From Candidatus Fermentibacterota bacterium (lineage in GTDB: Bacteria > JAFGKV01): 64,000 bases of DNA. Position 1 is the first letter of the stretch; every line of letters begins with the position of its first letter. This document shows positions 15,191-34,059 of this stretch, piece after piece. Where the stretch lies: contig JAFGKV010000238.1 of assembly GCA_016928395.1 (NCBI GenBank), positions 11,708-75,707 of the forward strand, read 5' to 3'. The notes below the pieces were generated by a model. It was not told the DNA's origin. It worked only from the letters and a program-made list of their open reading frames with translations, and did no database searches. Position numbers and translations under genes: made by a program.

Positions 15191-15501
15191 TTGATCCTCG
15201 AGGGGTCACCGAGCTACGACACAACGCGGCACTCCGGAGGCGTCTCGCTTCATTGGTTGGGGATACTCGCCCCCTCGTCGTGGGTGGACCCTGCGCCACG
15301 CATGGCGCCGATCCCTGTGCCGTCAGTCTATTTCCACGTTCGATAGGTCGGTTGTACCGCTACCTTTTTCACCATCTGCTGTATGCCTCAAGTATGGCTT
15401 CAGTGACCGTGTAATCCTCAAGGCCATCGGCCACCCGCCGGACTCGCCGGGTCCTTTTCGCAAAGGCGTATCCGGCCCGCTCGATGTGGCGGCACAAGGG
15501 A

Positions 15502-15533
15502 CGGGGTGCTGCCGCGTTCGCGGCAGCACCCCG
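15502..15533. terminator. Perfect inverted repeat, probable terminator of the minus-strand unit
   Basis: CGGGGTGCTGCCGCG-TT-CGCGGCAGCACCCCG, about 20 nt past the stop at 15553, between convergent genes; no clear U tract. Confidence 0.7.
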
Positions 15534-15552
15534 GATGAGCCCTGCGGATCGT

Positions 15553-18500: not shown

Positions 18501-19068
18501 CGGTCTGACTCAAGGTCGCCATCTGCGGCGCCAAGCCCTTGCGTTCCTTCCAGTCGAACAGGGCGCCGATGGAACCGGCCAGTTCGTCGGTGCAGACGAA
18601 GAGATAGCGGATGCCTGGACTGCGGCTCTCCAGCTGGATCTGATCCCAGTTAAGCACATAGGGGCGGATCAGCTCGGCGAATGACTGCGGCAGGTATCCC
18701 CGGAACGGTGGCATACCCTGATGAACGCCATCCAGCCGGAGGTCAATGCGAAGATCGATGACACCGTCAGGAACGTCTGTCGGTACATTGGCAATCAACG
18801 GCACCACCCGAAGCTCGCGGATCATGGCGGGTTCACCGGTCTCGACAATGGTCGTGCCCATGCCCGTGCGCATGGAGGTCGCGACGCTGTGGATCTCGAT
18901 TCCTCCGGGCGCGGCGACGAAACCCAGAGGGATTCGCTGGCCAGGGTGTGCGGTGAGAGATGCCTCCAGCGTCACTGAGTGTGTGGCTGTTGCCACCACG
19001 TTTATGGTATGGGCCTCCGACGCGGCGCCCATTCCCAGAACCCCCACAAGTACGAGAAGAAGAAGCAT
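15553..19068 (-). CDS. C25 (gingipain-like) protein with four Ig-like repeats and C-terminal FlgD/T9SS-like domain
   Basis: Signal peptide; WKERKG, YVLLVGD, VGRLP, YNLLGDP; four ~89-aa YTIxGT..DFxG repeats; tail PVPNP..WHGVDQNG..NGTY; AGGAG RBS. Confidence 0.9.
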   Translation of the reverse strand: MLLLLVLVGVLGMGAASEAHTINVVATATHSVTLEASLTAHPGQRIPLGFVAAPGGIEIHSVATSMRTGMGTTIVETGEPAMIRELRVVPLIANVPTDVPDGVIDLRIDLRLDGVHQGMPPFRGYLPQSFAELIRPYVLNWDQIQLESRSPGIRYLFVCTDELAGSIGALFDWKERKGLAPQMATLSQTGSTDSAIRQYIRDIYNTSGTLEYVLLVGDHPALPTHDYYNPIVGGYLKSDRYYGTFVGNDELPDVFVGRLPAAGTADLAVMIDKILSYESGEGDGPWMERGTVSSGAEHPTHPGTKRIVRDWLLNFGYDEVDSVFAPSGTAVQLLQKLNDGRNILNYRGGVADRERLAEIGWTQDYCYFMQNGPRRPLVTSIICLTGDFTHTGGAYGECLGESFMRAAGGAIAFFGATHITHTYANNTLDLGIYDGLAYQGLTRIGPITDAGLYYLTYNYPPSDTVTVTVRQYNLLGDPELALWTREPSTMNVSHPSTVPTGTSNVAVSTGVSGSLVCLRGAGVYEAGYADGSGTAYFQITPSTQDAIEVTVTHPGFFPYQGQMTIAAAYTIGGTVRTESGAPLSGAVVSLTGSSTGQVTTGGDGTYAFSDLAAGGNYTVTPTYSDIAGAWPFSPQNRTYSNLQADQWGQDFTGSIPRYTIGGTITSYASVPMEGVTVNLSGFQQAQTTTNAQGSFQFSNLLGAETYTITPTYTPQEGTWSFEPQNRTVQLLNSNHWAEDFVGTPPFYTISGTVRDETNASMEGVRVVLAGEAVDTTTTSANGSYSFSSLAGGRTYTVTPSYDPPEGAWTFTPPSYQFDPLTAPQTNRDFTGVRPRYAITGSIAGRDGEALPGVAVHLSGGWSDSTFTSSVGTYSFEAVPGGLAYQITPSLAYDDSVSWGFFPQEITIANLMSDLAGQTFVAQLPVRLCVGVGSGAPGSTGNPVDIELDNETYNPVSLDSLCFTLVYSAEHGAHVPVEGGVELAGRAEDFVLSYHVDETVAAACSVVVTLRRNATSLVVGTGAICNILFSLEQDADTAYATTLSFAAAAAWDTTGFLIPVDHRDTGMFGTGVHAAPAENPSRLLLHPPVPNPAAGEVAITFSVPRSSRSTLLVRDLTGRVLSRMDLGVLDAGEHGVRWHGVDQNGTTLPNGTYHCQLVACGQSASNLIVLLR
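16304..17367 (-). repeat. Four tandem ~89-aa carboxypeptidase-regulatory/Ig-like repeats inside the C25 gene
   Basis: Units begin YTIGGTV, YTIGGTI, YTISGTV, YAITGSI; each has G.Y/F.F..L..G..Y..TP and W.F.P. Confidence 0.85.
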
Positions 19069-19078
19069 TGCTACACTC

Positions 19079-20911
19079 CTATGGGATATCGGCTATCACC
19101 TGGAAGACGGAAACGCGGGCCGATAGATTCGATGCATTGCCGGTCTTGTCGACCGCCAGGACGCGGTAGTAGTCGTATTCGTCATAGAACGATGTCGTGT
19201 CGGTTTGTGCGGTGGACCAAGGGGTCCATCCGGAGTCAACCATGGCGTGCTGTGGATGGATGATGGCGGGGAGCTGCTCCTGCAGGGCCACAGATGGGTA
19301 GCGGTAGCGAAGCGCCCGGTAGAACAGCAGATCCTCGGGGCCGCCGTTGACATCTACCGTCACGGTGTTCCACGACAGGGCCATCAGCGAATCAACAAGA
19401 TCCACCTGGGCCTGAAACCCGGACACGCCCGCGGGAGGCGTGTCATCGGAACCGTAGTTGCTGGGTATGACGTAGATAAGGCCCGCATCATACCCCGCGA
19501 AAGGTGAGCCGTCTACGCCGAGGATGAGATCCGCCAGCCCGTCGCCGTTCACATCACCTCCGGCCACGCTACGGCCAGCCCAGTCTTTGTGGCCAACGCC
19601 TTGCCATCCGCCTTGGGAAGTCTCGATGTCCAACTGGGCAGGCCAATTCGCCGCCGCACGGCCGAAGACGGCGTATGCCTTACCATACCCCGCGCCCCAA
19701 TCCGGCGCGCCGACCGCGAAATCGTCGTAGGAATCGCCGTTGACATCTCCCAACGAACACAGGGCCGCACCGGTGGAGGCATAGGAGCCGACGATCTGCG
19801 TCGTGGCGGCGCTGGGAGGGGTGTCCTGGCCCCAGGCGGCCAGGGAGCTTCCTCTCCACAGATAGACGCTGCCCGTTCCGATGGGCGTCGAAATCAGGAA
19901 GTCGCCCTTATCGTCATTGTCAGTGTCGCCGGCGTCAGAAACGCAGGAACCCATCTCGTCGCCGGTGACTGCTCCAAGGAATGATTTGTCCGCATTGGCC
20001 AGGGATTCATTGATGATCCATCCGGTGGCCCTGCCCAGAACAAGGTAGGCCTTGCCTATGAAAAAGTCGTCCCAATCCGGTGAGTACTTGGGGGCGCCGA
20101 TGAGGATCTCGTCGCGGCCGTCGCTGTTCAAGTCAGGCACCACCGCGACCGTGAAACCGGCACGGCTCATTCCCGTGGCATCCGCCTCGCCAACAAGGGA
20201 CGCATCGGCATTTGCCAAGGATACGGACTGCGCCCACCCCGTTGTCTTGCCCAAAATGAGATAGACCTTGCCGCTGCCTGCCATGGGGGCGCCGATGAGG
20301 AAATCTCCCACGCCGTCACCGTTGACGTCGCCGGCGGAGGCGACAACGTGGCCGGCCCGATGACCGTAATCCTCACCGAGGTATGACGCGTCGGCCGTGG
20401 ACAAGGAGACATCCTGTCCCCAGCCCGACGGCTTGCCGAAGACGACGTACACCTTGCCGGCGTCTTCTTCAGCCTCGCCGTTGGCTGGGGCACCTACCAC
20501 GAGATCGGCATAGGTATCACCGTTGATGCTGGGGACGATGGCAAGGGACCATCCCGGGTGATCACCCACGGTTTCGCCCTTGAAACTGGCGCTCACCGAA
20601 CCAGTGAGAGCCATCTCAGGTTGCCACCCCAGCGCGGATCCGAACACGAGGTATACGGTACCGTATTCGCCCCCGGTGGTATCAAAGGGCGCGGAGAACG
20701 CCAGATCATCAATCCCATCGCCGTTCAGGTCGCCTCCGGAGGAGACGGCGTAACCCACCTGCGCGGCCGGCGCCGGCCCCATCCATGACCACGGTGCCGA
20801 CCATAGTCTCTCATTCTGCTGCCAGGCGGACGCGGACAGGGGGGCGAGGGAGACGAAAATGGGCAGCGCTACGCAAAGGTGTTCCAACCGGTGAGAGAAT
20901 CGTGACATCAT
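19079..20911 (-). CDS. FG-GAP (integrin-alpha-like beta-propeller) repeat protein with C-terminal Fn3-like domain
   Basis: Repeated GD(V/L)NGDG..D...GAP and G.VY..FG motifs; signal peptide; start approximate. Confidence 0.9.
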   Translation of the reverse strand: MMSRFSHRLEHLCVALPIFVSLAPLSASAWQQNERLWSAPWSWMGPAPAAQVGYAVSSGGDLNGDGIDDLAFSAPFDTTGGEYGTVYLVFGSALGWQPEMALTGSVSASFKGETVGDHPGWSLAIVPSINGDTYADLVVGAPANGEAEEDAGKVYVVFGKPSGWGQDVSLSTADASYLGEDYGHRAGHVVASAGDVNGDGVGDFLIGAPMAGSGKVYLILGKTTGWAQSVSLANADASLVGEADATGMSRAGFTVAVVPDLNSDGRDEILIGAPKYSPDWDDFFIGKAYLVLGRATGWIINESLANADKSFLGAVTGDEMGSCVSDAGDTDNDDKGDFLISTPIGTGSVYLWRGSSLAAWGQDTPPSAATTQIVGSYASTGAALCSLGDVNGDSYDDFAVGAPDWGAGYGKAYAVFGRAAANWPAQLDIETSQGGWQGVGHKDWAGRSVAGGDVNGDGLADLILGVDGSPFAGYDAGLIYVIPSNYGSDDTPPAGVSGFQAQVDLVDSLMALSWNTVTVDVNGGPEDLLFYRALRYRYPSVALQEQLPAIIHPQHAMVDSGWTPWSTAQTDTTSFYDEYDYYRVLAVDKTGNASNLSARVSVFQVIADIP

Positions 20912-20928
20912 CAAGGGTCCTCTGTTTC

Positions 20929-21939
20929 CTACCACGAGAGGATGACCAGACCGTTTCTTGTAGTTCCCACGTAGATGTAGTCATCGTCGGCGGCCATGGA
21001 GTACGAGGCGTTCACGACATACTGGCCGATTACGTGGGGCCGGTCGGGCCGGGACACATCCAGGACCAGGACGCCTTCATAGCTATCGGCGACCAGCAGC
21101 CTGTCGCGGTGAAGGATGACTTGCTTCGCGTTCCCCGGGGTACGGTGCCACCCGATCTGGCGGAGGTCCGCGGGATCGGTAGCGTCGATGACCCAGATGC
21201 CTCGGGCATTGTCGGCGACAAATGCCACAACCTGGTTGCCCAAGGAGCCCACGGCGACGTCATTGGCATAATCTTCAGTATCGAGGGAGTCGAGAGGTTC
21301 CATGACGCCGGAGAAATTGTCGGGCCTGTGACGGGCCGTGACCAGGCCGGCCTCACCCTGAGCGACATAGATCACTCCGTCGCGCACGGCAACGCCGCGG
21401 GCGTAACCCGGGAGACGTAGCCGGTTGGCGAAATGCAGGTCGGGAGGCGTGTGGTCGATCTCCTTGATGTCGAAACTGACGAGGCCGCCGGAACGATCGG
21501 CGACGTACAGCATGGTATCTACTGCGGCAACGTCTTCATACGACTCAACATAGGATGGCTGCACTTCAGTCCAGTAGAAGGGCGCAGTGGGGTCGGTTAC
21601 ATCCGCGACGAACATGCCAAGGTAGGATCCGGCCGTCACGCAGGCGAACTTTCTCATCCCCCGGTCAACCACTACCAGAGACTTCGAGTAGCCATTTGGG
21701 GGATCCAATCGGCCGCCCTGAGCGGGCGCCTCAGGATCGCGTACGTCGATGGTGGTGAGACCCAGTTCTCCAGTGGCGAGATAGGCCCACCCGTCGTCCA
21801 CCACCACATCGTACACCTGACCCTCTGTCGGAATCGACGCCACCACCTTGAACGCATCTTTCGGCTCGATGGGGCCTTCCCGCTCAGCGCAGGAGACCAG
21901 CAAAGCCGCCCCCAGCAGCACCAGGGTATTCCTTGTCAT
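20929..21939 (-). CDS. LVIVD-repeat beta-propeller lipoprotein
   Basis: Lipobox LLVSC; repeats such as YLATGELGLTTIDVRDP, VADSYEGVLVLDVSRP; GGAGG RBS. Confidence 0.88.
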   Translation of the reverse strand: MTRNTLVLLGAALLVSCAEREGPIEPKDAFKVVASIPTEGQVYDVVVDDGWAYLATGELGLTTIDVRDPEAPAQGGRLDPPNGYSKSLVVVDRGMRKFACVTAGSYLGMFVADVTDPTAPFYWTEVQPSYVESYEDVAAVDTMLYVADRSGGLVSFDIKEIDHTPPDLHFANRLRLPGYARGVAVRDGVIYVAQGEAGLVTARHRPDNFSGVMEPLDSLDTEDYANDVAVGSLGNQVVAFVADNARGIWVIDATDPADLRQIGWHRTPGNAKQVILHRDRLLVADSYEGVLVLDVSRPDRPHVIGQYVVNASYSMAADDDYIYVGTTRNGLVILSW

Positions 21940-21942
21940 TGT

Positions 21943-23046
21943 CTACCTCCCAGTCTTTCCGACGAGGCCTCGCGTTACCGACATCGAAAGGCCGATGGTA
22001 TTGGCGGTGAAATCCTTCTCTTCCCCGAGGTCGTCCTTGGCGTACGAATCAACTTCGCGCTTCTGCCACTTGTAGTTCAGATTGGCGGACACCCCCGCAC
22101 CCAGGCTGAACCCGATGCCGGTTTCCAGGGCAACCTTATTGTCTTTTCGGCCAGCATGGTAGGGGTCATCGATGAAGTCCTTCTTGGTAGTGCACGCCTT
22201 CAGATTGTAGCTTAGGCCGAAACTCAGTGATGGAGACGAGGCGAGCACCTTGACCGGCAATATATACGAACCGAACACATCATAGTTGTTCTCGTGGTAC
22301 GAACCATCCGTCTCATCCGAGGTCTCCTTCGTCTCACCGGGTTCGTCATAGCCTTTCATGGTGACTCTTCGGTAGTTGGCGCTGACACCTAGCGTGAGGC
22401 GTCTTGTGACACCGTACTTTGCCTCAGCCGTGACGGCGAAACCGTGGAAGTCATACTCCTGGAAGTAGTCAGGGTATTTCTCCCGCTCATACTGCCCGCG
22501 CGCCCGAAGCCCCAACCTTCCGCCCTTAAGGAGCCCCTTGGTGGCCTGCAGAGAGAGGAAATGCTTCGCGTAGTCATACTCCTCATAGTCCATCGTGTCC
22601 TCATCGTAAATCTGACGGATGTAGTACCGAGGAGTGTATCGATACGTGAGATAGGTGTAGAAATAACTGCCGATCCTTCTGCGAAGATCGAGCGAATAGT
22701 TGTGAAAGCTCTTCATCGTGTTGCGGTAGTTGCTGTTCTGCTTGACGGTGAGGGTAACCCTGGTGTCACCCTTGTACGCCTGAAGCCCCAGAGACTGCGC
22801 GATGATCAGATCGTCGGTAGTCTCCACCGTGGAGTACTGATCAGTCTGCGGCAGGTTTTTTATCAGGTCGATCTCATCCTCTGAGTACCGGAAGACGTTG
22901 TCGTCATAAGTAAACGACAGCCCCGTGACCAGGTCCAACTGGATGGAGGGAGGCGTCTTCTTCTTCGGCTTCGGCTTGGGGGTGGCCGCGGTTGCGGGCA
23001 TGACAAACCCTACCATCACCGCGATCAGCATCAGCTTCTTAGTCAA
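21943..23046 (-). CDS. Outer-membrane beta-barrel protein, candidate polymer export pore
   Basis: AAGGAGG RBS before TTG 23046; signal peptide; SFTYDDNVF first strand; many Tyr-rich amphipathic strands. Confidence 0.75.
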   Translation of the reverse strand: MTKKLMLIAVMVGFVMPATAATPKPKPKKKTPPSIQLDLVTGLSFTYDDNVFRYSEDEIDLIKNLPQTDQYSTVETTDDLIIAQSLGLQAYKGDTRVTLTVKQNSNYRNTMKSFHNYSLDLRRRIGSYFYTYLTYRYTPRYYIRQIYDEDTMDYEEYDYAKHFLSLQATKGLLKGGRLGLRARGQYEREKYPDYFQEYDFHGFAVTAEAKYGVTRRLTLGVSANYRRVTMKGYDEPGETKETSDETDGSYHENNYDVFGSYILPVKVLASSPSLSFGLSYNLKACTTKKDFIDDPYHAGRKDNKVALETGIGFSLGAGVSANLNYKWQKREVDSYAKDDLGEEKDFTANTIGLSMSVTRGLVGKTGR

Positions 23047-23115
23047 ACCGTATCCTCCTTCAAGTGGGGCCGCGCTTCGCAGTGAAGGATGTGGCAGAAG
23101 CACGGCGGTCGTGGA

Positions 23116-23982
23116 TCAGATATCCTTCTGAGGAATCAAGAACCGGAGCAAAACGCTGTCCAGGGCACTGCCTGGCTTGAAGCTCCAGTGGTGGACACCC
23201 GGCGGGACCGGAATGACTGCACGTTTGCCTGGCGCCGGTACCAGGTCATCCCGGTCAAGATATCTGGTCACATCGGAGCGTCGTGAGCTCCACGTGAACG
23301 AGTGGATCACCTGACTGCTCTCTAGTATTTGTACCTGGTAGTTCTGAATTCCTTTCATGTCGTAAGTGAACTCAAGGCGAGAGTAGATCACCAGCGTGGT
23401 CGGGCCGATGATCTCCAACTCCACCGGAGTCTGAGCTGTCGCGCGGTAGTATTTGACCTCGCGTTCCGCCCGTTCCAGGCGCACCACATCGGCATACCGT
23501 TCCGGGGACATGGCCGAGAGCTTGCCGAGGGAGGAGGGCTTGGCCGAGAAGAGCACCTTGACAGAGACGTTCTTGTCAGGGCACGTGATGGCGATCTGCC
23601 TCGTCCTCGGCGGGATGACTGCATACGAAGTGCGGCTCTCACCGACCCATAGCTTCCGGCCCGGTACGCCCGCTATCCCCGACTTCCTTGTAGAGTACGT
23701 CTTGGCGACCTTCCTGGTTCCTCCCACTATGGTTAACGAATAGGAAGTGTCCCGTTGCGTGGGGCGGGGGCCGATCCACCGAGAGACCACCCTAAGGCCA
23801 CCTGGTCCCGTCACGTTCAACCGCAACCCGTTCGCCCGATAGTACGTGGTCGACCTCCCTTTGATCACCACCGGTTGCTCCACGGTAGTTCCATATATGG
23901 GAGTCAGGGTCTTCCACTGACTCGACTCCGCTCCCGTAGCAGCAACCACCCACGCAACGACCAGAAGGCATCGACACATCAT
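23116..23982 (-). CDS. Hypothetical secreted basic protein with internal two-fold repeat
   Basis: Signal peptide; TYYR..LNVTGP..LRVVSR resembles KYYR..LEIIGP..LVIYSR; GGAGG RBS. Confidence 0.78.
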   Translation of the reverse strand: MMCRCLLVVAWVVAATGAESSQWKTLTPIYGTTVEQPVVIKGRSTTYYRANGLRLNVTGPGGLRVVSRWIGPRPTQRDTSYSLTIVGGTRKVAKTYSTRKSGIAGVPGRKLWVGESRTSYAVIPPRTRQIAITCPDKNVSVKVLFSAKPSSLGKLSAMSPERYADVVRLERAEREVKYYRATAQTPVELEIIGPTTLVIYSRLEFTYDMKGIQNYQVQILESSQVIHSFTWSSRRSDVTRYLDRDDLVPAPGKRAVIPVPPGVHHWSFKPGSALDSVLLRFLIPQKDI

Positions 23983-23993
23983 GGCAGGCCTCC

Positions 23994-25106
23994 CTAAGGG
24001 GATGGTGCTCTTGAAGTCTTGCGCAGCAGGCTGTGCGCGAGATCCACCCGGATTGTGATCAATAGCACCAGACTCAGAAGGAACAAGAGGAAAGCGGCGA
24101 TCCCGGTGTTGAGCCGCTCCGTGAAGTAGATTGTCCCGACGCCGATCTCAGGATCAGGACCTGGGGGAACAGGCAAGCCGTACTGCCGTGCCAGGCGCTC
24201 CACCTGGAGTATGTGAATCACGGGGATTCCTCGCTGGGCCAGGAGAAGGGTGGCGCCTTTGGTAGGGAAGTTGCGGCGGGCCAATGTCATGGAGAGCCCC
24301 GAGCGAATGAGCCGGCCATTGATGCTTGCCCCCAATGAGGCAACACCCCCGCCGACATTGACCGCGGCCTGGATCGGGCGATCGCCGGTTGCCCGGGAAT
24401 AGAGTTCCATCCGTCGGCGAATGGAGGCTTCCAGGGTTCTCTCATTTATGAACTCAACGCCGTTTCGAGTGATTGCCTGTTCGATGAGCAGGCGGCCTCG
24501 CCGGCTGAGGCCTCTCCCCCGATCTTCGCCGCCTCCGACCGACGCGGCGATGGACTTGGTGCGGATGATTCCCTTCCTTACCAGCAACTCCTCCATGTCA
24601 AGCCAGGTAAACTCGGGGTCGTTGGCGCCCCATGTGGATGACCCTACACTGGCGATGACGATGGGGCGGAGTTCCATGGTCTCCGCAGCAACAAGCAGAG
24701 CGATGTTGAGGCACGGGAGGGAGCCAGTCAAGGACACAGCGATCGCATCGCCGGGCTTGAGCCCCGCGTGACCAAGCATATCCACGAACACCGCGGCGAA
24801 GTTGGGATTGGTCGAGGTGAGCTTGGCCCGCAGTACGCCGCGATCGGTGGTAACGAGCGTGTATTCCTGACCGATCAGGCCCGTGGCGTGAGGGTCGTTC
24901 ACCAAGTCGATGACCAGCCCTTTGGGCAGGCGGTAGTCGCGGATGGCCTGCTGAGCCAGCATGGCGGTTCGCGAGGCCCTAAGCTTTTCGGTGTAGAACG
25001 GGCTGTGATGAATCACCTTCGACCGCTGCACCACCACCATGCACAGCACGGCGGCCGCAGAGACCGCGACCAGCACCACGCCGGAAACAGTGCGATAGCC
25101 ACCCAT
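23994..25106 (-). CDS. pgsW: Poly-gamma-glutamate system protein (PgsW-like)
   Basis: DPHATGLIG, TTDRGVLRAKLTSTNPNFAA, GSSTWGANDP, VNVGGG; N- and C-terminal TM; overlaps pgsC stop. Confidence 0.88.
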   Translation of the reverse strand: MGGYRTVSGVVLVAVSAAAVLCMVVVQRSKVIHHSPFYTEKLRASRTAMLAQQAIRDYRLPKGLVIDLVNDPHATGLIGQEYTLVTTDRGVLRAKLTSTNPNFAAVFVDMLGHAGLKPGDAIAVSLTGSLPCLNIALLVAAETMELRPIVIASVGSSTWGANDPEFTWLDMEELLVRKGIIRTKSIAASVGGGEDRGRGLSRRGRLLIEQAITRNGVEFINERTLEASIRRRMELYSRATGDRPIQAAVNVGGGVASLGASINGRLIRSGLSMTLARRNFPTKGATLLLAQRGIPVIHILQVERLARQYGLPVPPGPDPEIGVGTIYFTERLNTGIAAFLLFLLSLVLLITIRVDLAHSLLRKTSRAPSP

Positions 25107-25570
25107 TACATCGCCTCCGGCATACCGAAGAACGCACCACCGGACACCAGAATTAGAACAAGCCGCACCAGCACCGATGCGATGAGCAGCGTGGTCAGGG
25201 TGTGGAGTATTCCCTGCTTGTCCATATGCATACTGACCAAGCCTGGAATGATGTAGCCGACCGGCGCCAAATCCAACGGCAGATTGGCTATCTGGGGCCC
25301 CGGAAACGATCGAAGCGCCCATCCCGTGAGGAAACCGATGATGATGGTCAGCACCATACGTCGCCGGCCAAAAATGAACATGAAATAGGATAGGAACTTG
25401 ATCACGCCCAGCGTTACAAAGCTGGCGACGGCCGTCGACACGAGGGCAAGCGGCCGGTCCAGATAGAGGGCTACATACCCCGGCACGACCAAGCCGCCTG
25501 CGACAAGGCCGAAGAGCTCGGAGAAGACAAGGCTAACTACAAGACCGAGACCCAGAGACTCCAGTACCAA
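25106..25570 (-). CDS. pgsC: Poly-gamma-glutamate biosynthesis protein PgsC/CapC
   Basis: FSELFGLVAGGLVVPGYVAL, FGRRR, GYIIPGL..MDKQG; start TTG 25570 estimated. Confidence 0.93.
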   Translation of the reverse strand: MVLESLGLGLVVSLVFSELFGLVAGGLVVPGYVALYLDRPLALVSTAVASFVTLGVIKFLSYFMFIFGRRRMVLTIIIGFLTGWALRSFPGPQIANLPLDLAPVGYIIPGLVSMHMDKQGILHTLTTLLIASVLVRLVLILVSGGAFFGMPEAM

Positions 25571-26765
25571 GAGCCTTACCTCTGTTTTGAAAGTATGATG
25601 CCACTTCTTCGCCCAAGCCGACAATGTTGCCGACCGCCACCACCAACGCCGTCGATGGCGTGAGGGCGAGCACCTTCTCAAACACTTCCGCTGGCGACGC
25701 GTCGCCCAGGTTTGTGATCCTCTCTGCGTCAAGACCCTCGCGGATGGCCTGATCCTCGACCGCCTTGGTGAGTTGACCGATGAGCACGCAGTGGTCTGAC
25801 GGCCATCGTGTGGCGATGAACTTCCCGAACTGCTGCGCGCGGGACAGCCGATCGCCGCGGTTGTTGAATAGCACGATAGTCTTGTCCGTGGATGGCACGG
25901 AGTGCCTGGCCCGTTCGCACGCCAGCAAGGTCGACTCAGGGTCATTGGCCGCCAACGCATTCACAAAGAAGAGCCGCTTCTCGAAGAATGCAATCTCCCA
26001 GGCCTGGAGCGCACCGATATCAGGCCGTGCTTCCCACATGCCGTGGAGCGCAGTCTCGCGATCAATCCCCAGCGATTGGCAGACGGCCAAAGCCAGCGCG
26101 ATGTTCTCAGGGTGTTCGAGATACGAGAAGCCCTTGGCTGCTTCGACGTCAGCCTCGGCGGGCTGCGTGACCGTCAAGGTTGTTTCCCTGGCGGCAGCAG
26201 TCTGCTGGAACGGATGGATCATCTTATGCTCGGCTGTGAATGCTTTTGCCCGCTTCGGCATGGTGTTGGAGAGAGCCCACGCGACATCTTCAACCGTGGG
26301 ACCCATGACGTCAAGATGATCCTCCCGTGCATTGGTGATCACCCCATGGGTCGCCTTGACTACCAGGTGTTCCGTGAAGCGCTGATACTCGGGCTGCACC
26401 GCCATGCATTCCAGCACCAATGCCTGGACATCCCGGGTTGCCGCACGAATGATGACCTTAATCTGCTCCCGTACAGACGGTGGCCCGTGACGAACCACGG
26501 GAGTCTCCCGACCATTCTCCCAGATGAGGCGCGCCGCCGATCCAGTCGTCTTTGCGATAGTACGGATGCCACCCGCCCGGAGTCCGGCTGCAATAAGGCG
26601 GGTTACACTGGACTTTCCCCGGGTGCCATTTACATGGATCCGGATGGGGATTCTCGCCAGGGCCTGCCGATGGCGACGGTGTTCGATGATCCCGGCTATC
26701 ACGAGGAAAGCCAGCAGGGCCGGGAGTATTAGAAGTGAGGGCCCCGTCAGGGTGTCAATGACCAC
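25533..26765 (-). CDS. pgsB: Poly-gamma-glutamate synthase PgsB/CapB
   Basis: IPIRIHVNGTRGKSSVTRLI, KTTGS, LECMAVQP, ITNAREDHLDVMGP, AANDPEST, GNIVG; start approximate. Confidence 0.95.
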   Translation of the reverse strand: MVIDTLTGPSLLILPALLAFLVIAGIIEHRRHRQALARIPIRIHVNGTRGKSSVTRLIAAGLRAGGIRTIAKTTGSAARLIWENGRETPVVRHGPPSVREQIKVIIRAATRDVQALVLECMAVQPEYQRFTEHLVVKATHGVITNAREDHLDVMGPTVEDVAWALSNTMPKRAKAFTAEHKMIHPFQQTAAARETTLTVTQPAEADVEAAKGFSYLEHPENIALALAVCQSLGIDRETALHGMWEARPDIGALQAWEIAFFEKRLFFVNALAANDPESTLLACERARHSVPSTDKTIVLFNNRGDRLSRAQQFGKFIATRWPSDHCVLIGQLTKAVEDQAIREGLDAERITNLGDASPAEVFEKVLALTPSTALVVAVGNIVGLGEEVASYFQNRGKALGTGVSGSRSCS

Positions 26766-27358
26766 CGGGTCCACTCCTCTCGAACCACATCCGGCACATC
26801 GACAACCATGGCCTCGGCCAGGGCGATTGCCCTTTCCCGGCCTGTGAGGCAAGAGACCATGGTGAGACCACAGAGCAGGGCCGTGCCGGGCCCTCTGCTG
26901 GTAACGAAAGGCGCATCCACCACAACCGGGGATTCGCAATAGTGAGAGTCCACCAACTCCGCCCTGCACGAGGGATGTGATGTGACCCGTCGGCCGCGGA
27001 GTAGCCCCATGCGGTGAAGCACGGTGGGTGCGGCGCAGATTGCAGCGATGAGCATGCCTCGACGTCGCACTTCATCGATGGCCACCATCACCGCCTCGGA
27101 TTCCGCGAGACGGTTCGTGCCTGGCATACCGCCGGGAAGGAAAATGCCCATGGCAGCTTCCATATCGACCGTTTCCAGGGATACCTCTGCCTGAAGCCTG
27201 AAGCCATGGCTTCCTGGGACCATGCTCGGGGCTCCCGGCAGCCGGGCCACTACCGGGAGGATGCCTGCCCTGGAGAGCACATCGGCGACAGCCACCGCCT
27301 CCGTTTCTTCGTAGCCTACAGCCAGTGGAATCACCACAAAAGGGCGCGGTCGGGGCAT
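26747..27358 (-). CDS. DJ-1/PfpI (ThiJ/YajL) family protein
   Basis: GYEETE, LPGGMPG, AAICAAP nucleophile elbow, TSRGPGTA. Confidence 0.92.
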   Translation of the reverse strand: MPRPRPFVVIPLAVGYEETEAVAVADVLSRAGILPVVARLPGAPSMVPGSHGFRLQAEVSLETVDMEAAMGIFLPGGMPGTNRLAESEAVMVAIDEVRRRGMLIAAICAAPTVLHRMGLLRGRRVTSHPSCRAELVDSHYCESPVVVDAPFVTSRGPGTALLCGLTMVSCLTGRERAIALAEAMVVDVPDVVREEWTRWSLTP

Positions 27359-27811
27359 TCAGAAGCCTTCGCGCTCCAGCAGGTGCAGTGGCCAGCAGGA
27401 CTCGATGAGCGACTCGCCTGTGGCTGCCAGGCCCAGAACCCTCACCAGGCCGTCGGCTATCTCCAGGCCCCGAAGGTTGCCGGGCGCCCCCGGTCCAACG
27501 GCCGGGCCAGATGGCCCGCGCTCGTGGCCAAGGGCGGGCCGAGCCGAAGGTTGATGCGCCATACCAATGGTTAGATCGCCCAATCGGTGCACCCGGGAGA
27601 TGGGCGTGGTGCCATCACCATAGTCGGGGTGGTGCAGGCCGGGGACCACAACGGTCTCTTCTCCTTCATTCACGAAACCCTGGATATCGGTGTGTTCATC
27701 ACCCAGATGAACCACGGTATCCACCCTCACCCTTGCCCTGGCCAGGGCAAGGGCCTCTCCCAGCAACCGCCTGTTGCCGTGGGTGTCGCTGACCACCACG
27801 CACCTATGCAA
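27359..27811 (-). CDS. YfcE-like metallophosphoesterase, C-terminal motifs degenerate
   Basis: VSDTHGN and HLGD present; GN and GHTH motifs not recognisable. Confidence 0.7.
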   Translation of the reverse strand: MHRCVVVSDTHGNRRLLGEALALARARVRVDTVVHLGDEHTDIQGFVNEGEETVVVPGLHHPDYGDGTTPISRVHRLGDLTIGMAHQPSARPALGHERGPSGPAVGPGAPGNLRGLEIADGLVRVLGLAATGESLIESCWPLHLLEREGF

Positions 27812-27815
27812 GCGG

Positions 27816-30800
27816 CTACTCCTGCACTACGTAATCCTGCTCACCTACGGTCGGCGAGGCGACTGATTCGTTGGCCGCCGCATCCACTGCGGTGACTGCA
27901 TAGAAGTAGTTCAGATTCGGATCTCCGATGCCTTCCGTCACGGGAAAGGTCGTGCCGGATGTCGTCGCCAGCGGCGTGAGCCCGACGACGTCGAAGTAGG
28001 CAGTTGCGCTGCGGTAGATACGATATCCGGTTACGCCCACATTGTCGGTGGCGGGTGCCCATGAAAGGGTGCCCGCGGCATCTAGGCCGGTCCACGCAGG
28101 GGCGGTGGGCGCCTGGAGGTCTCCGCTGCCACCCCTCAGCCATGCCAGCGACTGTGCAATGACGCCACCGATAGTATTGTCGCCCGCACCCGTCGTGCTG
28201 AACGCCTCTAAGGCCGTGGCGAAGAAGATGACGCGGTAGGTAGCATCCCCGGTTGCCGGGTACCGAATCACCGTAGACTTCCCATTGTTGGCCATGCGAA
28301 ACACCGTTGCCGCGGACGGGTCGGGGCCTACCGTGTCGGGGTAATCTGAGAGGTCGCTAGGGCAGGTGATTGTGACCTGGAGCCCATCGCTGATGGGATC
28401 TCCCGGCACACCCTGTACGCTGGTTAAACCGCTTACATTCGTCTGGAATGATGCCACATGAAGATGCTGGGAGGTGAATGAGTCTCCCGCATACGACGAG
28501 AGGTAGTTCTCGGCAGAGAACAGCAGCGCGCCTCCATTGTCCAGATAGGCAGCCAGGTCGGTGCGGTCTTGCCCATTGCAGGAGCTTTGGTTCTGATCAC
28601 CAGCAGCCCAGAGGACGACCTGATACTGCATGAGATTGAGGAGCCCCGGCGATCCTGCCGAGTACCATAGCCATTGATCGTACGTCTCACCAAGTCCATT
28701 CAGCGCCTGCACGATGCGTCCCTCGTGGGCTTCATCGTCGGTGTCGACGAAGAGGAGAGGCTTCTGGCCCACGCACACGGTGAGCGACGCGGTCGCTACA
28801 TAGTCTCCCGCTGCGGACAGATCCAACGTGAATGTTACCAGGTGCGCCAGTGGTGTTGACGGGGAGAGCTCAACCTCGAAGGGGACCGTGGGGCCAGCGG
28901 CCGACGAGGGCGCGAGGTCGGGGTACCCTGCGTTGGGGTTCATGATGGTGGTGAACCCGTCAGCCTCGGACAGAGTGGCACTGACATTCCAGGCAGTGCC
29001 ATTACCATTGTTCTTGACGGACGGGATGATCTGTACGGTCTCACCGGCATCCGGCTTGCCATTGCCGTTACCGGAGACCTCGACCACGGAGAATCCGTCG
29101 AGGTCAAGTACCGGTGCATTCACCAAGAACGAGCGATACGAATCCCATGCGTTCGCCCCGGACGTAGCATGGATCAGAACGGAAACACCCTGGCGATCAG
29201 GGCAGTTGCCTCCCACGGAGAAGACATAGTCGCCCGGCGACCAGACTTCCGCGCCTGCTGCCATGTCACCGAAGCTCTGTGTGCTCTGCGTGAACTGGAC
29301 ATAGGGCGACGCGGTACTGGCGACGGCGGCTACCCCGGGCGCAGGATCGACTCCCACGTTCTTGAGCTGCACACCAAACTCGATGGTCTCACCGAGTTCT
29401 ATCACACCATCACCGTTGCCAAAACTGGCGCCAGCCATGTCATCATCCACGGAATGCGCGATGGCGACCACATACGGGCCCGAGGGCGAGATGACTTCGA
29501 CGGTGCCGTGGTGTTCCAGGTAGTCGTGGGCACTTACGTAGAGGTCCATCGGTCCTGGAGTCTGAGGTGGCGTGTCGAACTCGACAATGGCGGTTCCCGA
29601 GCCGTCGGTGATGGCACTGCCGAGAAGCACGCCATCGCGGGAGAAGGCGACGCGGGCTCCCGCAACACCGGGCACCGAGACCGTGAAGGTCGCCTCCCCG
29701 ATTACGTAGGCTGCCGCATGATTGACGACCATGGTGGTAGGCTGCGCGGTCCAAATATCGAGGAGCGGATCGCCTAACACGTTCAGTTCGTAGTAGCACC
29801 AGCGATTCTGCTCGAACCCAATGTAAGGAATATTGTCTTCCTTTGAATCCTGGTTGGCCTCGGCGATGTTGGTGATGCCTTCACCGAACAGCGCATCGAA
29901 GAACTGCCGGTCATAGTACTGGCTGGAACCATTGGTGCTGCTGTGGGCGCCCCACCCGTAGCGGGAGCAGGAGATGTTGGCCACCGCACCGTGGGCGAGC
30001 TCGAACGCGATACGCTCATTGATGCAGTCGGATGTGTAGCCGCCCGAGGTGGTCCGGTTGTCGAACGAGCCGCAGTAGCAGCCCTGACTGTAGGTGATGT
30101 AGAACGAGTGGTTCACGCCATTGTTCGTGAAGTTCGCGTCGGTCAGGTCGGAGTTGTAGAGCCTCATGTAGTACGTGACATCGGCGTGACCGAGATGGTT
30201 CACGAGGTGGACACCGTTGTTGAGCAGCGGCCTGAGCTGGCTCATGGCATTCCACGTACCGAGGTCACGGTCATACAAGGTCGCCACGTCGAAATTCGGG
30301 GGGAACCCGACCGTGGTATACCCATGGGTCGAGGCGCCGAACTTGATCTCGTCCTTGTAGTCGCCGCCGTAGGTCGGGTCGCTCCACAGGAGTTCGCCGA
30401 CCATGAGTGCTTCGGTGCATTCGGAAACGATGGGGTTGGTTTGATAGGCAACCGTCTTGTTGTAGAAGTTGGTGAACTCGGTGGCATTGTCCCCGCACAC
30501 ACGCGCCACGTAGACTTCGGCCACCAGGTCTGATTCGAGGCTGTTCTCGCCCCAGAGCCCGTCGCCATCGGTGTTCCAGTTCCCGTCAAGCCCGGCGAAG
30601 TAGAGGTCGGCGGCAATGTCGTCGTCCTCGTAGCCCCATCCCGGATCGTTGTAGAGACCTCGGTGCGGAACGTTCTCGTTATCGCCGCCCAACATCACAT
30701 ACTGGATGCCGTTGTTCGTGTAGTAATCGATGATGCAGTTGCGGATCTTATCGGGGTTGTCCACACCGGTGTAGGCCGCATAGATGGACTCCACCGTCTC

Positions 30801-31547
30801 CACGGCGATGCGCCAGCCGCGGACGGTCTTGTAGTTGACATAGGAATTCAGGTTGGCCTGTTGGGCATTGTTCGTTACGATCAAGAGGTCGTAGGGTACG
30901 TCGCGGAGGGAACGCGCAGCCGGATAGGTCATCATCGCGGTAGGGTTGATCACCGCTCGCTCCACCCTGGCTCTGTCACGCTCCGTCCCGCGGTACATCG
31001 CGGCGAGCGCGTCGGCGGCTCTTGGGGTTGCCTCGGTGATGACCTGCACGGTCAGCCGTGGATAATACTGGAGTTCTCCCGTGGCCGGAGTATAGCTCAC
31101 GGGATGCAGGGTGAACACGCCAAGGCTGCATCCCATTTTGAATTCAGTTGAGGAGTTGGCCACCCGGTACGAGGGGAATGCGTCGCGGCTTCCGAGAAGG
31201 TCCGGTACCAGGGGCGTCGTTTCCCACGGGCCTTGATAGGAGAATGGATACTGCCGTTGAACGACCTCCACGGTATAGGCGGCGGGCAGGGAGATGGGCT
31301 CGGCTGATTCCACGTGCACGGACACGATCTCATGACCTGGCGGAAGCAGCGCCGTAATTCCCTGCACCGGAAGCCGGGGTTCGCCCGTCTGACCGATGCT
31401 CAGGCATCCTTGAATCTCAACGCGGTAGGCATCGCCGATCGGGGTGACCGTCGGTTCCTCGTAGTCAAACGAGAAGGTGAGCATGTCGGCATGGGAGATC
31501 GCCACCGAGGCGATGACCATGACAGCTGCGACCGTGAATCTGAACAT
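27816..31547 (-). CDS. C25 cysteine peptidase with propeptide, Ig-like domains and C-terminal Fn3-like domain
   Basis: Signal peptide; GEPRLP propeptide; YVMLGGD; catalytic NHLGH and SQGC; LNVLGDP; GNGDG..GE repeats; GGAGG RBS. Confidence 0.92.
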   Translation of the reverse strand: MFRFTVAAVMVIASVAISHADMLTFSFDYEEPTVTPIGDAYRVEIQGCLSIGQTGEPRLPVQGITALLPPGHEIVSVHVESAEPISLPAAYTVEVVQRQYPFSYQGPWETTPLVPDLLGSRDAFPSYRVANSSTEFKMGCSLGVFTLHPVSYTPATGELQYYPRLTVQVITEATPRAADALAAMYRGTERDRARVERAVINPTAMMTYPAARSLRDVPYDLLIVTNNAQQANLNSYVNYKTVRGWRIAVETVESIYAAYTGVDNPDKIRNCIIDYYTNNGIQYVMLGGDNENVPHRGLYNDPGWGYEDDDIAADLYFAGLDGNWNTDGDGLWGENSLESDLVAEVYVARVCGDNATEFTNFYNKTVAYQTNPIVSECTEALMVGELLWSDPTYGGDYKDEIKFGASTHGYTTVGFPPNFDVATLYDRDLGTWNAMSQLRPLLNNGVHLVNHLGHADVTYYMRLYNSDLTDANFTNNGVNHSFYITYSQGCYCGSFDNRTTSGGYTSDCINERIAFELAHGAVANISCSRYGWGAHSSTNGSSQYYDRQFFDALFGEGITNIAEANQDSKEDNIPYIGFEQNRWCYYELNVLGDPLLDIWTAQPTTMVVNHAAAYVIGEATFTVSVPGVAGARVAFSRDGVLLGSAITDGSGTAIVEFDTPPQTPGPMDLYVSAHDYLEHHGTVEVISPSGPYVVAIAHSVDDDMAGASFGNGDGVIELGETIEFGVQLKNVGVDPAPGVAAVASTASPYVQFTQSTQSFGDMAAGAEVWSPGDYVFSVGGNCPDRQGVSVLIHATSGANAWDSYRSFLVNAPVLDLDGFSVVEVSGNGNGKPDAGETVQIIPSVKNNGNGTAWNVSATLSEADGFTTIMNPNAGYPDLAPSSAAGPTVPFEVELSPSTPLAHLVTFTLDLSAAGDYVATASLTVCVGQKPLLFVDTDDEAHEGRIVQALNGLGETYDQWLWYSAGSPGLLNLMQYQVVLWAAGDQNQSSCNGQDRTDLAAYLDNGGALLFSAENYLSSYAGDSFTSQHLHVASFQTNVSGLTSVQGVPGDPISDGLQVTITCPSDLSDYPDTVGPDPSAATVFRMANNGKSTVIRYPATGDATYRVIFFATALEAFSTTGAGDNTIGGVIAQSLAWLRGGSGDLQAPTAPAWTGLDAAGTLSWAPATDNVGVTGYRIYRSATAYFDVVGLTPLATTSGTTFPVTEGIGDPNLNYFYAVTAVDAAANESVASPTVGEQDYVVQE

Positions 31548-31559
31548 TGGCTTTCCTCC

Positions 31560-33902
31560 CTATTCGGGTTGTGGAAGGGTGGCAGCGGGGGAACCGGAGG
31601 GAACGACCAGTTGATAGTCGTGTTCGCCCACCGTGGGCGAGGGCGCTGATTCGTTGATCGCAGCGTCGATGGCGGTGACACGGAATGAGTAGTTCGCCAA
31701 GGGATCACCGAGCGAGCCCGACACGTCGAATGAGGTCGACGGCGTGGTCGCCATGAGCAGAGACGGAGTGGGAGCGAAGTATGCTGCCGAGGATCGGTAG
31801 ACCCGATAGCCGGTTACACCCACATTGTCGGTGGCCGGCGACCAGGTGAGAAGGCCCGTCGTGCCCAGCGCGATGGAGGCCGGTGCGGACGGCGGTTCGG
31901 AATCGCCACCGCCGATGGTGATGGCACCCATGAAGGCTACTCCATTGTAGGCGGTGACCGTGACATTCAAGGCCCCGGCCGTGGCGGAGGGAATGGGAAG
32001 AGTCGCGTGGCCGACTCCGTCGGTGTACGCGACTGCATGCACCTCGCCGGCTTTGTACAAGCAGACAAGGGCGTCGGGGCATGGAGAGCCGCCCCTGGTC
32101 ACGGTACACGGCACCGACTGAGGCGTCCCAGCGGGGATTTCCGCGGGGAAGCTCGCCGCCAGCGGGGAGGGCGCCAATGTGTACATGAGTAGCGAAGGAT
32201 CACCGAGGATGTTGTACTGCTCGAAGTAACCCTTGGTGGCGTTGTTCGTCCCATACCCCTGCTTGTAGCGGAGTTTGCCCTCGAGAATGAACCCGCCAGT
32301 CCAGTTGTAGCCATCGTCAAACAGGGCATCCCACATGCGGCGCTGCAGATAGTCATCGTTCGGCCAGAAGGAGCTTACCGACGAGCCATATGCCACGACT
32401 GCGCCCTTACCCGGCCTTCGGATCCATCGTTCCATGTAGCAATCCTGGTCGCTGGTCCAGGCAAAGTTGCCGGTGAGGCAGGCGAAGCTCAGCACGATGG
32501 GGTACCTATCGAGGTTGTTGAGCTGGTCCACGTTCCAGCGGCTGAACGTCGGCCCTTGCCATCCCGTTTCCACGCCATGGCCTGAGTAGGTCACCATGGC
32601 GCGCCCGGTAGCTACTGCTGTAGCGATAGGTGTTCCTGTACCGTAGAACCCCCACAGCGAGTCACAGACCACGCCGTGGGCGCGGGCCTTGGCCATGCAG
32701 TAGGCGTGGGTGCCTTCGGTGACTCCGTGATAGTTCCAGTCATCGGAAGAGATGAAGTACTCCCGGCCAGTCCACAGGGAGTCGACGGCCCACGCTGTCT
32801 GCTCGTAGTCAACGGTCTTCTCGACCAGCCCCTGGATGTCGGCGATCGTCCTGAGTGAGAATCGGCCAAGGTAGAGATCCGGCACCCAGTCTGTTCCATC
32901 CACGCAGCTGTAGTTGAGATCGGTAGGGGGGTTCTGGTTGCCGGTGCCGTTCCATGCGGGAATCGTGTTGGAATCGCCGACCAGGAGCACGAACTCCGGG
33001 GGCGGATCCCATGTCCCATATGCGTTCTGAATGTAGTTCTTGATGGTGGTGGCAGTGGCGCCGCCCGGGATTTCGCTCAACCTGGTCAGCGTGGTGGGGT
33101 AGCCCTTGCGGGTCTTCCATTCGGCCAGAGGAACTACGGCATCATAGAGGGAGTCCACGACGATCGCAAGGTACCCTGCCGGGAGGGCAACCGTCTCCCG
33201 CGGGGGGGGATTCAGCAGAAGGCCGGCCGCGTGCTGCGCGAAGACGCTGTGCTGCAAGCGGTCTTCAGGCTGTTCCAAGGAAGCATCGAAGGAGATCCGG
33301 ACAACCGCCGACTCAATGGTTTCCAGGGTTGCATTGGTGGGATCGTAGCACACCGGGGAAAGCTCGATCATGGCCAATTGCATGCCTCGCATGCGTCCTA
33401 GCTGAGCAATCCGCGCGGTCCCCGGAGGCGCGGTCGGGGTGGCGTACGAGGCTTCGTCGAGAACCCACCCGTCATCCGGGGATGCTCCCGGAATCTTCGG
33501 CACCGGCCGCATCACCGGGGCCAGACGTTCGGCGCCCCATGCCCGCAGGTCGTGAGATCGACGCCCAGAAAACTCCACCGCGACCGTCACCGATCCGTCG
33601 GCGGGGATTCGAATGAACGCCCGGGCGACCGGAACCTCGGGCCCGCCCCATGTCTCGGGCTTCCCCATGTCCTCCATGACAAGGTGCGCATATCGTATGC
33701 CTTCTCTCGCGACAACCTGAGCTTTCAATGCGGGGGAGTCCCACCGAAATTCGAGATCCGTCACGCCGGAGCGGAGAAGATGCCACCCCGGCATTGTCGT
33801 CCCTTCTCGCACCAGGTAGACCTGAGCCGGCGCCACGGCCACGGTCGATGCAACGAAGAGCAGGCACAGGAACACCACCACTGAGAATGAACAACGTAGC
33901 AC
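31560..33902 (-). CDS. C25 cysteine peptidase with propeptide and C-terminal Fn3-like domain
   Basis: Signal peptide; WKTRKG, FVLLVGD, LGRFS; catalytic TYSGHG and SFAC; YNILGDP; GGAGGA RBS. Confidence 0.93.
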   Translation of the reverse strand: MLRCSFSVVVFLCLLFVASTVAVAPAQVYLVREGTTMPGWHLLRSGVTDLEFRWDSPALKAQVVAREGIRYAHLVMEDMGKPETWGGPEVPVARAFIRIPADGSVTVAVEFSGRRSHDLRAWGAERLAPVMRPVPKIPGASPDDGWVLDEASYATPTAPPGTARIAQLGRMRGMQLAMIELSPVCYDPTNATLETIESAVVRISFDASLEQPEDRLQHSVFAQHAAGLLLNPPPRETVALPAGYLAIVVDSLYDAVVPLAEWKTRKGYPTTLTRLSEIPGGATATTIKNYIQNAYGTWDPPPEFVLLVGDSNTIPAWNGTGNQNPPTDLNYSCVDGTDWVPDLYLGRFSLRTIADIQGLVEKTVDYEQTAWAVDSLWTGREYFISSDDWNYHGVTEGTHAYCMAKARAHGVVCDSLWGFYGTGTPIATAVATGRAMVTYSGHGVETGWQGPTFSRWNVDQLNNLDRYPIVLSFACLTGNFAWTSDQDCYMERWIRRPGKGAVVAYGSSVSSFWPNDDYLQRRMWDALFDDGYNWTGGFILEGKLRYKQGYGTNNATKGYFEQYNILGDPSLLMYTLAPSPLAASFPAEIPAGTPQSVPCTVTRGGSPCPDALVCLYKAGEVHAVAYTDGVGHATLPIPSATAGALNVTVTAYNGVAFMGAITIGGGDSEPPSAPASIALGTTGLLTWSPATDNVGVTGYRVYRSSAAYFAPTPSLLMATTPSTSFDVSGSLGDPLANYSFRVTAIDAAINESAPSPTVGEHDYQLVVPSGSPAATLPQPE

Positions 33903-34030
33903 GAAGGGGATCCTCCGATGGGGCTGCCTAGGTTCGCCCAGACAGGATGAAAGGGACTCCCGGGGTGCCGTCGGTGAGGCGGCAAAGGCGAGGTCCGGCG
34001 TTGCCGAGAGGTGGACCGGGAAACAGAAGA

Positions 34031-34059
34031 AACGTATCTTGGCCCTCGTAGGCTGTCAA
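34031..34059 (-). promoter_or_regulatory. Sigma70-type promoter for the C25/pgs unit
   Basis: Minus strand TTGACA-N17-TACGTT, about 130 nt upstream of start 33902. Confidence 0.6.

Follow-up and report, generated by a model that had tools for sequence, protein, structure and literature searches.

Two C25-family peptidases (P0001 and P0002) and an FG-GAP repeat protein (P0003), all encoded in a 64-kb stretch of DNA (the window; positions 11708-75707 of contig C299), end in a C-terminal tail of the Fn3 type that is about 100 amino acids (aa) long. The source genome, G000, comprises 4.79 Mb in 343 contigs and is 94% complete and 3% contaminated. Across this genome the tail recurs as a single copy per protein, almost always at the very end, on cargo proteins that are otherwise unrelated, and its terminal copies were not found together with the type A C-terminal domain (CTD) of the T9SS (type IX secretion system). 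From these sequence features, the tail is probably some kind of sorting or retention tag that these proteins share; more tentatively, it may be a lineage-specific C-terminal sorting or anchoring tag that replaces the type A CTD and is read by the T9SS.

The gene for P0001 (27816-31547, minus strand; 1243 aa; Peptidase_C25 by Pfam) encodes a signal peptide, Propeptide_C25, Peptidase_C25, a C25 Ig-like domain, DUF11-like repeats, a pre-tail module of ~300 aa and the Fn3-type tail (27816-28121, minus strand; residues ~1143-1243), which ends in ...VGEQDYVVQE-stop. P0002 (31560-33902, minus strand; 780 aa; likewise Peptidase_C25 by Pfam) consists of a signal peptide, Propeptide_C25, Peptidase_C25, an Ig-like domain and the tail (31608-31904, minus strand; residues ~667-765), after which come an extension of 15 aa (31563-31607) and the stop. 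A reading of this DNA made from the sequence alone (the sequence-only reading) had described closely similar ends of ~100 aa on two divergent C25 proteins, and this proved correct: the two tails align without gaps at 57/100 identities (BLAST, E 1e-37), whereas the cargo parts are only ~20% identical (pair M002/M011). An iterated profile scored the P0001 tail at 94.9 bits, ending 2 aa short of the stop, and the P0002 tail at 103.6 bits, ending 15 aa short of it. The same reading had seen a more distant version on the FG-GAP protein (P0003; 19079-20935, minus strand; six FG-GAP stretches by Pfam; signal-peptide-like N-terminus). Its tail (19091-19447, minus strand; ending ...VFQVIADIP-stop) showed no pairwise BLAST similarity to the C25 tails (E = 10), but the iterated profile matched residues 512-630 of the 633-aa frame at 39.6 bits, 3 aa from the stop; P0003 is thus a distant member visible to the profile alone, and member M077 carries a close paralogue of its tail. 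The pre-tail module of P0001 (residues ~830-1130; window ~28160-29060), which lies immediately before the tail, also occurs in M007, M009 and M016; it is common to C25 and M14 peptidases at 43-50% identity, although their catalytic parts differ, and it precedes the tail in a contig (L081) of a metagenome-assembled genome (MAG) labelled Eisenbacteria as well.

The whole genome was translated in six frames from stop to stop, which yielded 29,692 open reading frames (ORFs) of at least 80 aa. A hidden Markov model built from just the P0001 and P0002 tails matched 51 ORFs at E ≤ 1e-3, 50 of them with the domain no more than 30 aa from the end of the frame, a recurrence well above chance expectation, and four profile iterations at E ≤ 1e-4 raised the number to 102. 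At 45 bits or more there were 79 copies in 79 different ORFs, one per protein, and 77 of these copies end at most 30 aa before the stop (56 at ≤5 aa and 21 at 8-29 aa); the remaining two lie internally, and in one of these cases a contig end truncates the frame. The iterated profile drifts to generic Fn3, and the 91 ORFs with any terminal match include weak cases. The expectation of the sequence-only reading that matches would be numerous across the proteome and strictly C-terminal was therefore borne out in 77 of the 79 high-scoring copies.

Conservation extends to the end of the protein. The tails finish in ...S-N-x-V-G-E-[FH]-D-[FY] and a further 2-5 residues, often [ILV]-P-stop. Proline is the last residue in 38 of the 77 members (49%) as against 11% of 3,803 background ORFs; arginine is last in 17 of the 77 as against 15% of the background, and 67 of 117 type A tails in G000 are Arg-ended. 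In seven tails the sequence breaks off just past the F strand (...FYRVTA), so that the last Fn3 strand is missing: those of M071, M072, M081, M083, M085 and M089 (e.g., C239:10152-11384, C193:14956-16599, and C178:45419-47068) and that at C8:1583-2083. The idea of donor-strand docking, in which an orphan strand of the 'VGEFDF' type would be found elsewhere in the proteome, was rejected: non-member motif matches were no commoner than in a shuffled proteome (8 vs 8).

The genome also contains many T9SS tails. TIGR04183 gave 91 and PF13860 gave 77, which merge into 119 distinct type A/FlgD_ig tails; they were counted at E ≤ 0.01, so some fall below curated cut-offs. No ORF among the 91 that have a terminal Fn3 match holds one of these 119 tails; of the 11 whose Fn3 matches are exclusively internal and low-scoring, 2 do carry one. 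G002, a genome from a different genus of the same family, has 63 Fn3-tail matches (E ≤ 1e-8) and 89 TIGR04183 matches; one pair (1/63) shares a frame, and its Fn3 match is an internal, low-scoring generic domain (47.6 bits) that stops at profile position 96. Among the best 40 matches of G002, 39 end at most 24 aa before the stop with the same motif, 17 of the 40 in Pro and 9 in Arg. No family-type Fn3 copy was found upstream of a type A tail in G000 or G002; generic internal Fn3 domains were, in two ORFs of G000 and one of G002. The window offers contrast cases: P0004 (15553-19068, minus strand), a C25 peptidase with CarboxypepD_reg repeats, has no Fn3 tail and ends in a FlgD_ig/T9SS-type tail (~15595-15786; Pfam 43.9 bits; genome-search match at C299:27302-27493), and a beta-helix protein (58345-61263, plus strand; Pfam Beta_helix) directly 3' of sprA has a T9SS type A tail at ~61024-61230 (TIGR04183 match at C299:72731-72937). 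The sequence-only reading had noted that the other large secreted proteins carry FlgD-type or type A tails and had named mutual exclusivity with type A tails as a test of its idea, and both held; the Fn3 matches were neither mostly internal nor combined with a canonical T9SS tail.

Cargo was assigned by Pfam for 78 members. It includes peptidases (C25, S8, M14, C10, C1, M23 and trypsin-like), other enzymes (PAD_porph, which is PPAD-like, GH18, alpha-amylase, GHL15, PLD and PETase-like) and further proteins (Beta-helix, FG-GAP, RCC1, LTD and DUF362), and many members have no family at all; the tail itself received no Pfam name in these scans. Several of the classes (C25, C10, M14, S8, PAD_porph and GH18) are listed as experimentally known T9SS effector classes in PMC10202324. 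Among the 66 cargos of at least 150 aa, 26 have a homologue among type A/FlgD-tailed cargos (E ≤ 1e-10; identity reaching 51% over 400 aa). Tails at least 40% identical over at least 80 aa were found in 138 pairs among the 64 members compared, and 109 of these pairs have no detectable cargo similarity, which indicates that the tag moves independently of its genes; for example, M001 (an S8 peptidase) and M002 (a C25 peptidase) have tails that are 67% identical. As anticipated for signal-peptide proteins, a crude heuristic found signal-peptide-like N-termini in 48 of 72 members, a frequency like that of ORFs with type A tails (63 of 98); the background gave 187 of 583.

Some members are paralogous small secreted proteins of ~190-230 aa that consist of a signal peptide, a Gly-rich domain of ~55 aa (...GGG.RMTGG.Y.V.GT.GQ..P.G......Y....GFWHA), the Fn3 tail and an extension of 8-20 aa that usually ends in Arg. 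Their loci (L003-L006, L008, L013, L017, and L024) are C102:12694-13314, C46:2112-2792, C162:20017-20586 and C158:730-1302 for the first four, and C157:19908-20540, C44:7436-8053, C186:1150-1713 and C332:1084-2124 for the rest. Public metagenomes contain 65 relatives of 106-297 aa, one of which is named Candidatus Eisenbacteria.

The AlphaFold2 model computed from an alignment of 74 tails (A1) is a beta-sandwich (predicted local distance difference test, 92.1; predicted template modelling score, 0.82). In a Foldseek search of the PDB the best match was the Fn3 domain of Bacillus circulans chitinase A1 (1k85; E 2.9e-6, 37% identity), and the other top matches listed were Fn3 as well; identity to the chitinase A1 Fn3 was 37-42% across structural searches. 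The best 50 matches of a VIA structural search against representatives were all Fn3 (Z 9.5-11.7; chitinase A1 Fn3, Z 10.9), and an ESM Atlas look-up returned scores of at most 0.83 and structural neighbours of the Fn3 type only. Solved T9SS CTDs (RgpB, PorZ, Hbp35) are Ig-like seven-strand sandwiches; none was among the Foldseek matches listed or the best 50 VIA matches, and the tail may still be similar to them. In profile comparisons, an exoglucanase model of NCBIfam matched 19 of the 74 tails through its Fn3 part (E ≤ 1), and 13 tails matched Pfam fn3 at E ≤ 1 (best 2.8e-5); the P0002 tail scored 17.7 bits against a cut-off of 25. The conserved VGE-x-D-[FY] corresponds to the last (G) strand of the Fn3 fold. 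Taken together, the structural and profile matches to Fn3 indicate that the modelled domain is a diverged Fn3, set apart by its position, copy number and last strand rather than by its fold.

The SprA-like T9SS translocon gene, whose presence the sequence-only reading had correctly noted, is in the window (~52703-58378, plus strand; an open frame whose start codon is not fixed; TIGR04189, 463 bits summed over the frame; Pfam SprA_N). SprA, PorU-like and 6-8 PorV-like genes are present in all three tail-bearing genomes. G000 has eight PorV-family paralogues, all under the curated PorV cut-off (best 124 bits vs 250), at C97:3931-5001 and C110:7320-8747 and on C55, C151, C240, C135, C159 and C293. 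It also has five PorU-like C25 proteins of large size (1394-2273 aa; best score 218 bits vs 420), with loci at C87:32039-36220, C59:19863-25559, C327:2878-13887 and C262:19565-25990. Three PorV-like genes directly adjoin a type A-tailed gene, and several others adjoin large ORFs of ~1000-1300 aa. A complex predicted between the tail and the best PorV-like protein (that on C97; alignment A3) scored 0.00, but this prediction was run without controls and counts neither way.

The sole conserved neighbour family of tail-bearing genes comprises ten ORFs with Gly-rich repeats, whose Fn3-tailed neighbours are mostly genes of the small-protein subset. They encode proteins of ~340-790 aa with a signal peptide and many '..YGV.G...S..G.GV.G' repeats; eight of the ten adjoin Fn3-tailed genes, mostly directly upstream, and the other two lie within two genes of one. 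Their positions are C157:17883-19895, C102:13304-15082 and 15209-16417, C235:2111-4066, C80:2-1657, C333:5582-6607, C186:2-1150, C332:3-1016, C15:3447-5804 and C193:11934-14084. A Gly-rich-repeat ORF and a small Fn3-tailed gene may together form a two-gene surface-structure cassette.

The tag is present in all three species genomes searched from the phylum, with 81, 87 and 55 matches at E ≤ 1e-12, and close proteins in public data are labelled Candidatus Eisenbacteria bacterium. A search with a single tail recovered the Eisenbacteria-labelled contig L081, in which the tail is again terminal; 48 other loci matched only over residues ~2-93 and are mostly generic 'TDNVGV' Fn3 domains from Actinomycetota, Bacillota and others. 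Among 119 homologues of the P0002 tail, six (query included) have a single terminal motif-bearing copy at 95-104 bits, and the next terminal match, at 52 bits, is the last repeat of a multi-Fn3 protein; a search with a tail of the 'YWVYGA' subtype returned the query itself only. We ran profile A2 (49 columns, the C-terminal half) on 398 genomes from ~270 families outside the phylum and scored 17 candidates per genome. Within that set, in which Chloroflexota may be thinly represented, a terminal multi-copy tag was found in none of the 398, and strong matches occurred in G219 only (two at 55 bits), the remaining ones reaching at most 37 bits; the best matches in five other genomes are internal or tandem Fn3. 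G219 is a low-GC (guanine-plus-cytosine), unrelated, SprA-encoding genome, and its two paralogues (L200/L201; G219:C47:15116-20364) contain the same Fn3 subtype (...GDPSVNYFYRIVAV...SNITGEFDY) internally, where it is followed by two repeats of ~80 aa and a further C-terminal region. Judged by these profile searches, the tag is confined to this lineage among the genomes searched. Full-text literature searches gave no paper on an Fn3-type C-terminal sorting domain or on the T9SS in this lineage.

Elsewhere in the window, P0001-P0004 belong to a same-strand gene train of ~18.5 kb (15553-34055, minus strand). This train also contains a Mur-ligase-middle-domain protein (25536-27071), an LVIVD-repeat protein (20932-21942) and three ORFs without a Pfam family (23997-25532, 23119-24147, and 21946-23115). 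A lipid A biosynthesis cluster at 886-6835 encodes OmpH/Skp and then an LpxC-FabZ fusion, LpxA, an oxidoreductase, LpxB, DUF374 and LpxK, which confirms a diderm envelope with lipopolysaccharide (LPS).

A tail that is always last, single, shuffled among cargos, conserved to its last residues and exclusive with the type A signal behaves like a sorting or anchoring module rather than an accessory domain. We know of no outer-membrane system other than the T9SS that reads a folded beta-sandwich at the C-terminus. The T9SS also accepts several unrelated CTD classes (A, B, and C) with specialised shuttles, according to PMC10202324 and PMC12618676. Because the T9SS reads beta-sandwich CTDs and accepts unrelated classes, and because the lineage has SprA, PorU-like and PorV-family proteins, we favour an alternative T9SS signal. 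In the proposed mechanism, the cargo would be exported by Sec and folded in the periplasm, and the type IX apparatus, in the form of the SprA translocon with a shuttle from among the eight PorV-family barrels, would recognise the tail. Recognition would probably rest on the conserved last strand and the ending ...SN-x-VGE-[FH]-D-[FY]-x(2-5)-[ILV]-P. After passage across the outer membrane, the cargo would be either released or held at the surface. That the tail acts as a signal, that the T9SS reads it, which shuttle would serve it and that it may be cleaved are all points that we infer. If they are right, the tail could represent a fourth, Fn3-based class of type IX signal, outside Bacteroidota and with its own PorV-family shuttle, a proposal that we make with some reserve.

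Type A CTDs direct T9SS-dependent secretion, after which PorU removes the tail and the cargo is attached to anionic LPS. Like the type A CTD (TIGR04183/PF18962 and FlgD_ig-like variants), which is a terminal, seven-stranded beta-sandwich of ~70-100 aa with one copy per Sec-exported protein, the Fn3 tail sits on dozens of unrelated cargos in genomes encoding SprA, PorV and PorU (type A CTDs reach dozens to hundreds), and the same cargo families recur (C25, C10, M14, S8, PPAD-like, and chitinase). Unlike the type A CTD, it has canonical Fn3 topology and the end ...VGE[FH]D[FY]..[IL]P, is without detectable sequence similarity to that domain (0/74 at E ≤ 1), and, among the genomes searched, occurs in a single tiny lineage. 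A precedent for unrelated CTD classes with shuttles of their own comes from type B (PorP/SprF-dependent) and type C (ChiA-type) signals (PMC12618676, PMC10202324), and the 6-8 PorV-family paralogues of this lineage could play such roles. Unlike the CTDs of those classes, however, the tails are matched by no NCBIfam or Pfam model for them, and unlike many type B genes, tail-bearing genes are without a conserved adjoining shuttle gene. Tripartite signals (LPXTG/sortase, PEP-CTERM/exosortase, and GlyGly-CTERM) do not fit the tails, since only 0-29 aa follow the last beta-strand and these hold no hydrophobic segment; a sortase B signal model gave a weak, chance-level match to 1 of the 74 tails (E 0.026, NCBIfam).

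Several observations weigh against a T9SS signal. None of the 74 tails matches any T9SS sorting-domain model in NCBIfam at E ≤ 1 (15 families were returned), and at the same threshold none matches the Pfam models Por_Secre_tail, CHU_C and FlgD_ig; TIGR04131 and NF033708 are the type B and type C CTD accessions. The domain is a canonical Fn3 closest to that of chitinase A1, for which we know of no sorting role, and in a library of 1.84 billion proteins the tail profile matches 157,740 at E ≤ 1e-3, led by giant multi-Fn3 proteins, and so lacks specificity within the superfamily. Each of the best 150 of these library matches has 10-52 matched stretches, which shows Fn3 superfamily membership only. 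The neighbour search found no PorP/SprF- or PorV-like gene as a conserved neighbour of tail-bearing genes. In G219 the Fn3 subtype is internal, with ~330 aa after the domain. SprA scored over its cut-off in 93 of 401 genomes, namely the three that bear the tag and 90 outside the phylum (G219 included), and those 90 are without a terminal multi-copy tag; the T9SS does not need the tag, and the tag is not a general T9SS feature. The co-distribution with sprA that the sequence-only reading had set as a test therefore stood in one direction, in that all three tail-bearing genomes encode SprA, and failed in the other. These three genomes, on which the T9SS link rests, are related and so are not independent observations. 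On the side of method, the signal-peptide heuristic is crude enough to score 32% of the background, and genes were modelled as six-frame ORFs chosen by a crude greedy procedure. Some members are 5'-truncated or may be fragments. Within the lineage, the suggestion that the domain is a lineage-specific export or anchoring module is nevertheless supported, with the export or anchoring step itself reached by inference.

The absence of similarity to any T9SS tail model and the plain Fn3 fold, a common protein- and glycan-binding module, would also suit docking or retention independent of the T9SS. Cargo would then cross the outer membrane by another route, e.g., type II secretion, and the terminal Fn3 would bind a surface receptor, scaffold or glycan and display enzymes on the cell as a dockerin or SLH domain does; this reading, less likely than not, ranks next after the T9SS signal. 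It would be in keeping with the tag on very small cargos (~55-aa domains in ~190-230-aa proteins), with a metagenomic relative, P0338, that has a precomputed Cohesin-domain annotation together with the tail, and with a prepilin peptidase gene in the window. Like dockerin/cohesin and SLH modules, the tail recurs at the end of numerous unrelated enzymes that a single organism secretes, but it differs from them in fold, and no receptor repeats were identified. Dockerin/cohesin and SLH systems are known mainly from monoderm bacteria, whereas the tail-bearing organism, with its lipid A genes, is diderm. No candidate receptor or scaffold was found, the ten conserved Gly-rich neighbour ORFs accompanying mainly the small-protein subset. 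Moreover, a module that served retention alone could occur together with a type A export tail, and this was seen in 0 of 91 cases; since type A cargo is already surface-anchored, the exclusivity would make sense only with both tags as alternatives at the same step of a pathway.

Sorting need not be involved at all if the tail is an ordinary accessory Fn3, a spacer or substrate-binding domain that spread by gene duplication and is last by chance. Secreted hydrolases often carry such modules, and 1k85, the closest solved structure, is one of them; bacterial hydrolase Fn3 modules like that of chitinase A1 have the fold of the tail, are nearest to it in sequence and share the W, Y-x-V-Y-R and Y-x-V-x-A-x-D-x-x-G-N-E-S signatures with it. 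The internal subtype in G219 points the same way, as does the finding that, among 40 homologues of the P0002 tail with a terminal match, 34 match in the last Fn3 repeat of multi-Fn3 proteins outside the lineage. We nevertheless think it improbable. Hydrolase Fn3 domains are internal and often tandem, whereas this one is single, terminal, proteome-wide, distinctive in its last strand and never upstream of a type A tail; a clean score gap separates the family (95-104 bits) from generic terminal Fn3 (at most 52 bits); and neither the tag's presence on non-enzymes (FG-GAP, RCC1, and tiny proteins), nor the unrelated cargo of most similar-tail pairs, nor the conserved peptide past the last strand with its excess of C-terminal Pro fits an accessory domain. 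That conserved extreme C-terminus, where many members close with [ILV]-P-stop or else with an often Arg-ended extension of 8-29 aa, could instead be a handle for C-terminal processing or maturation by a C25/PorU-like peptidase or a tail-specific protease, controlling activation or turnover and not location. The genome does encode many C25 peptidases and several giant PorU-like proteins, and many cargos are zymogen-type peptidases with propeptides; however, a folded domain of ~100 aa far exceeds what a protease handle needs, non-enzymatic cargos are tagged too, and the neighbour search linked no dedicated protease gene to tail-bearing genes, which makes a processing handle quite improbable.

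If the T9SS does read the tail, one translocon would serve two cargo sets (~119 type A-tailed and ~80 Fn3-tailed) with different fates, e.g., covalent LPS anchoring as against release or non-covalent display. The repertoire of signals would then widen past types A, B and C and past Bacteroidota, and the lineage would offer a natural system for how one translocon sorts two cargo classes. If the T9SS does not read it, the tail would point to a docking system, so far undescribed, by which a diderm cell displays its entire secretome at the surface. Entire phyla have their secretome and surface proteome defined by C-terminal sorting domains, and annotation relies on these as well. In this barely known lineage, ~2% of the genes bear a tag unnamed in any domain library, and current annotation therefore misses that the tail-bearing peptidases, glycosidases and adhesin-like proteins are one class. 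Either way, the tail profile is a ready marker of the secretome of this lineage in metagenomes.

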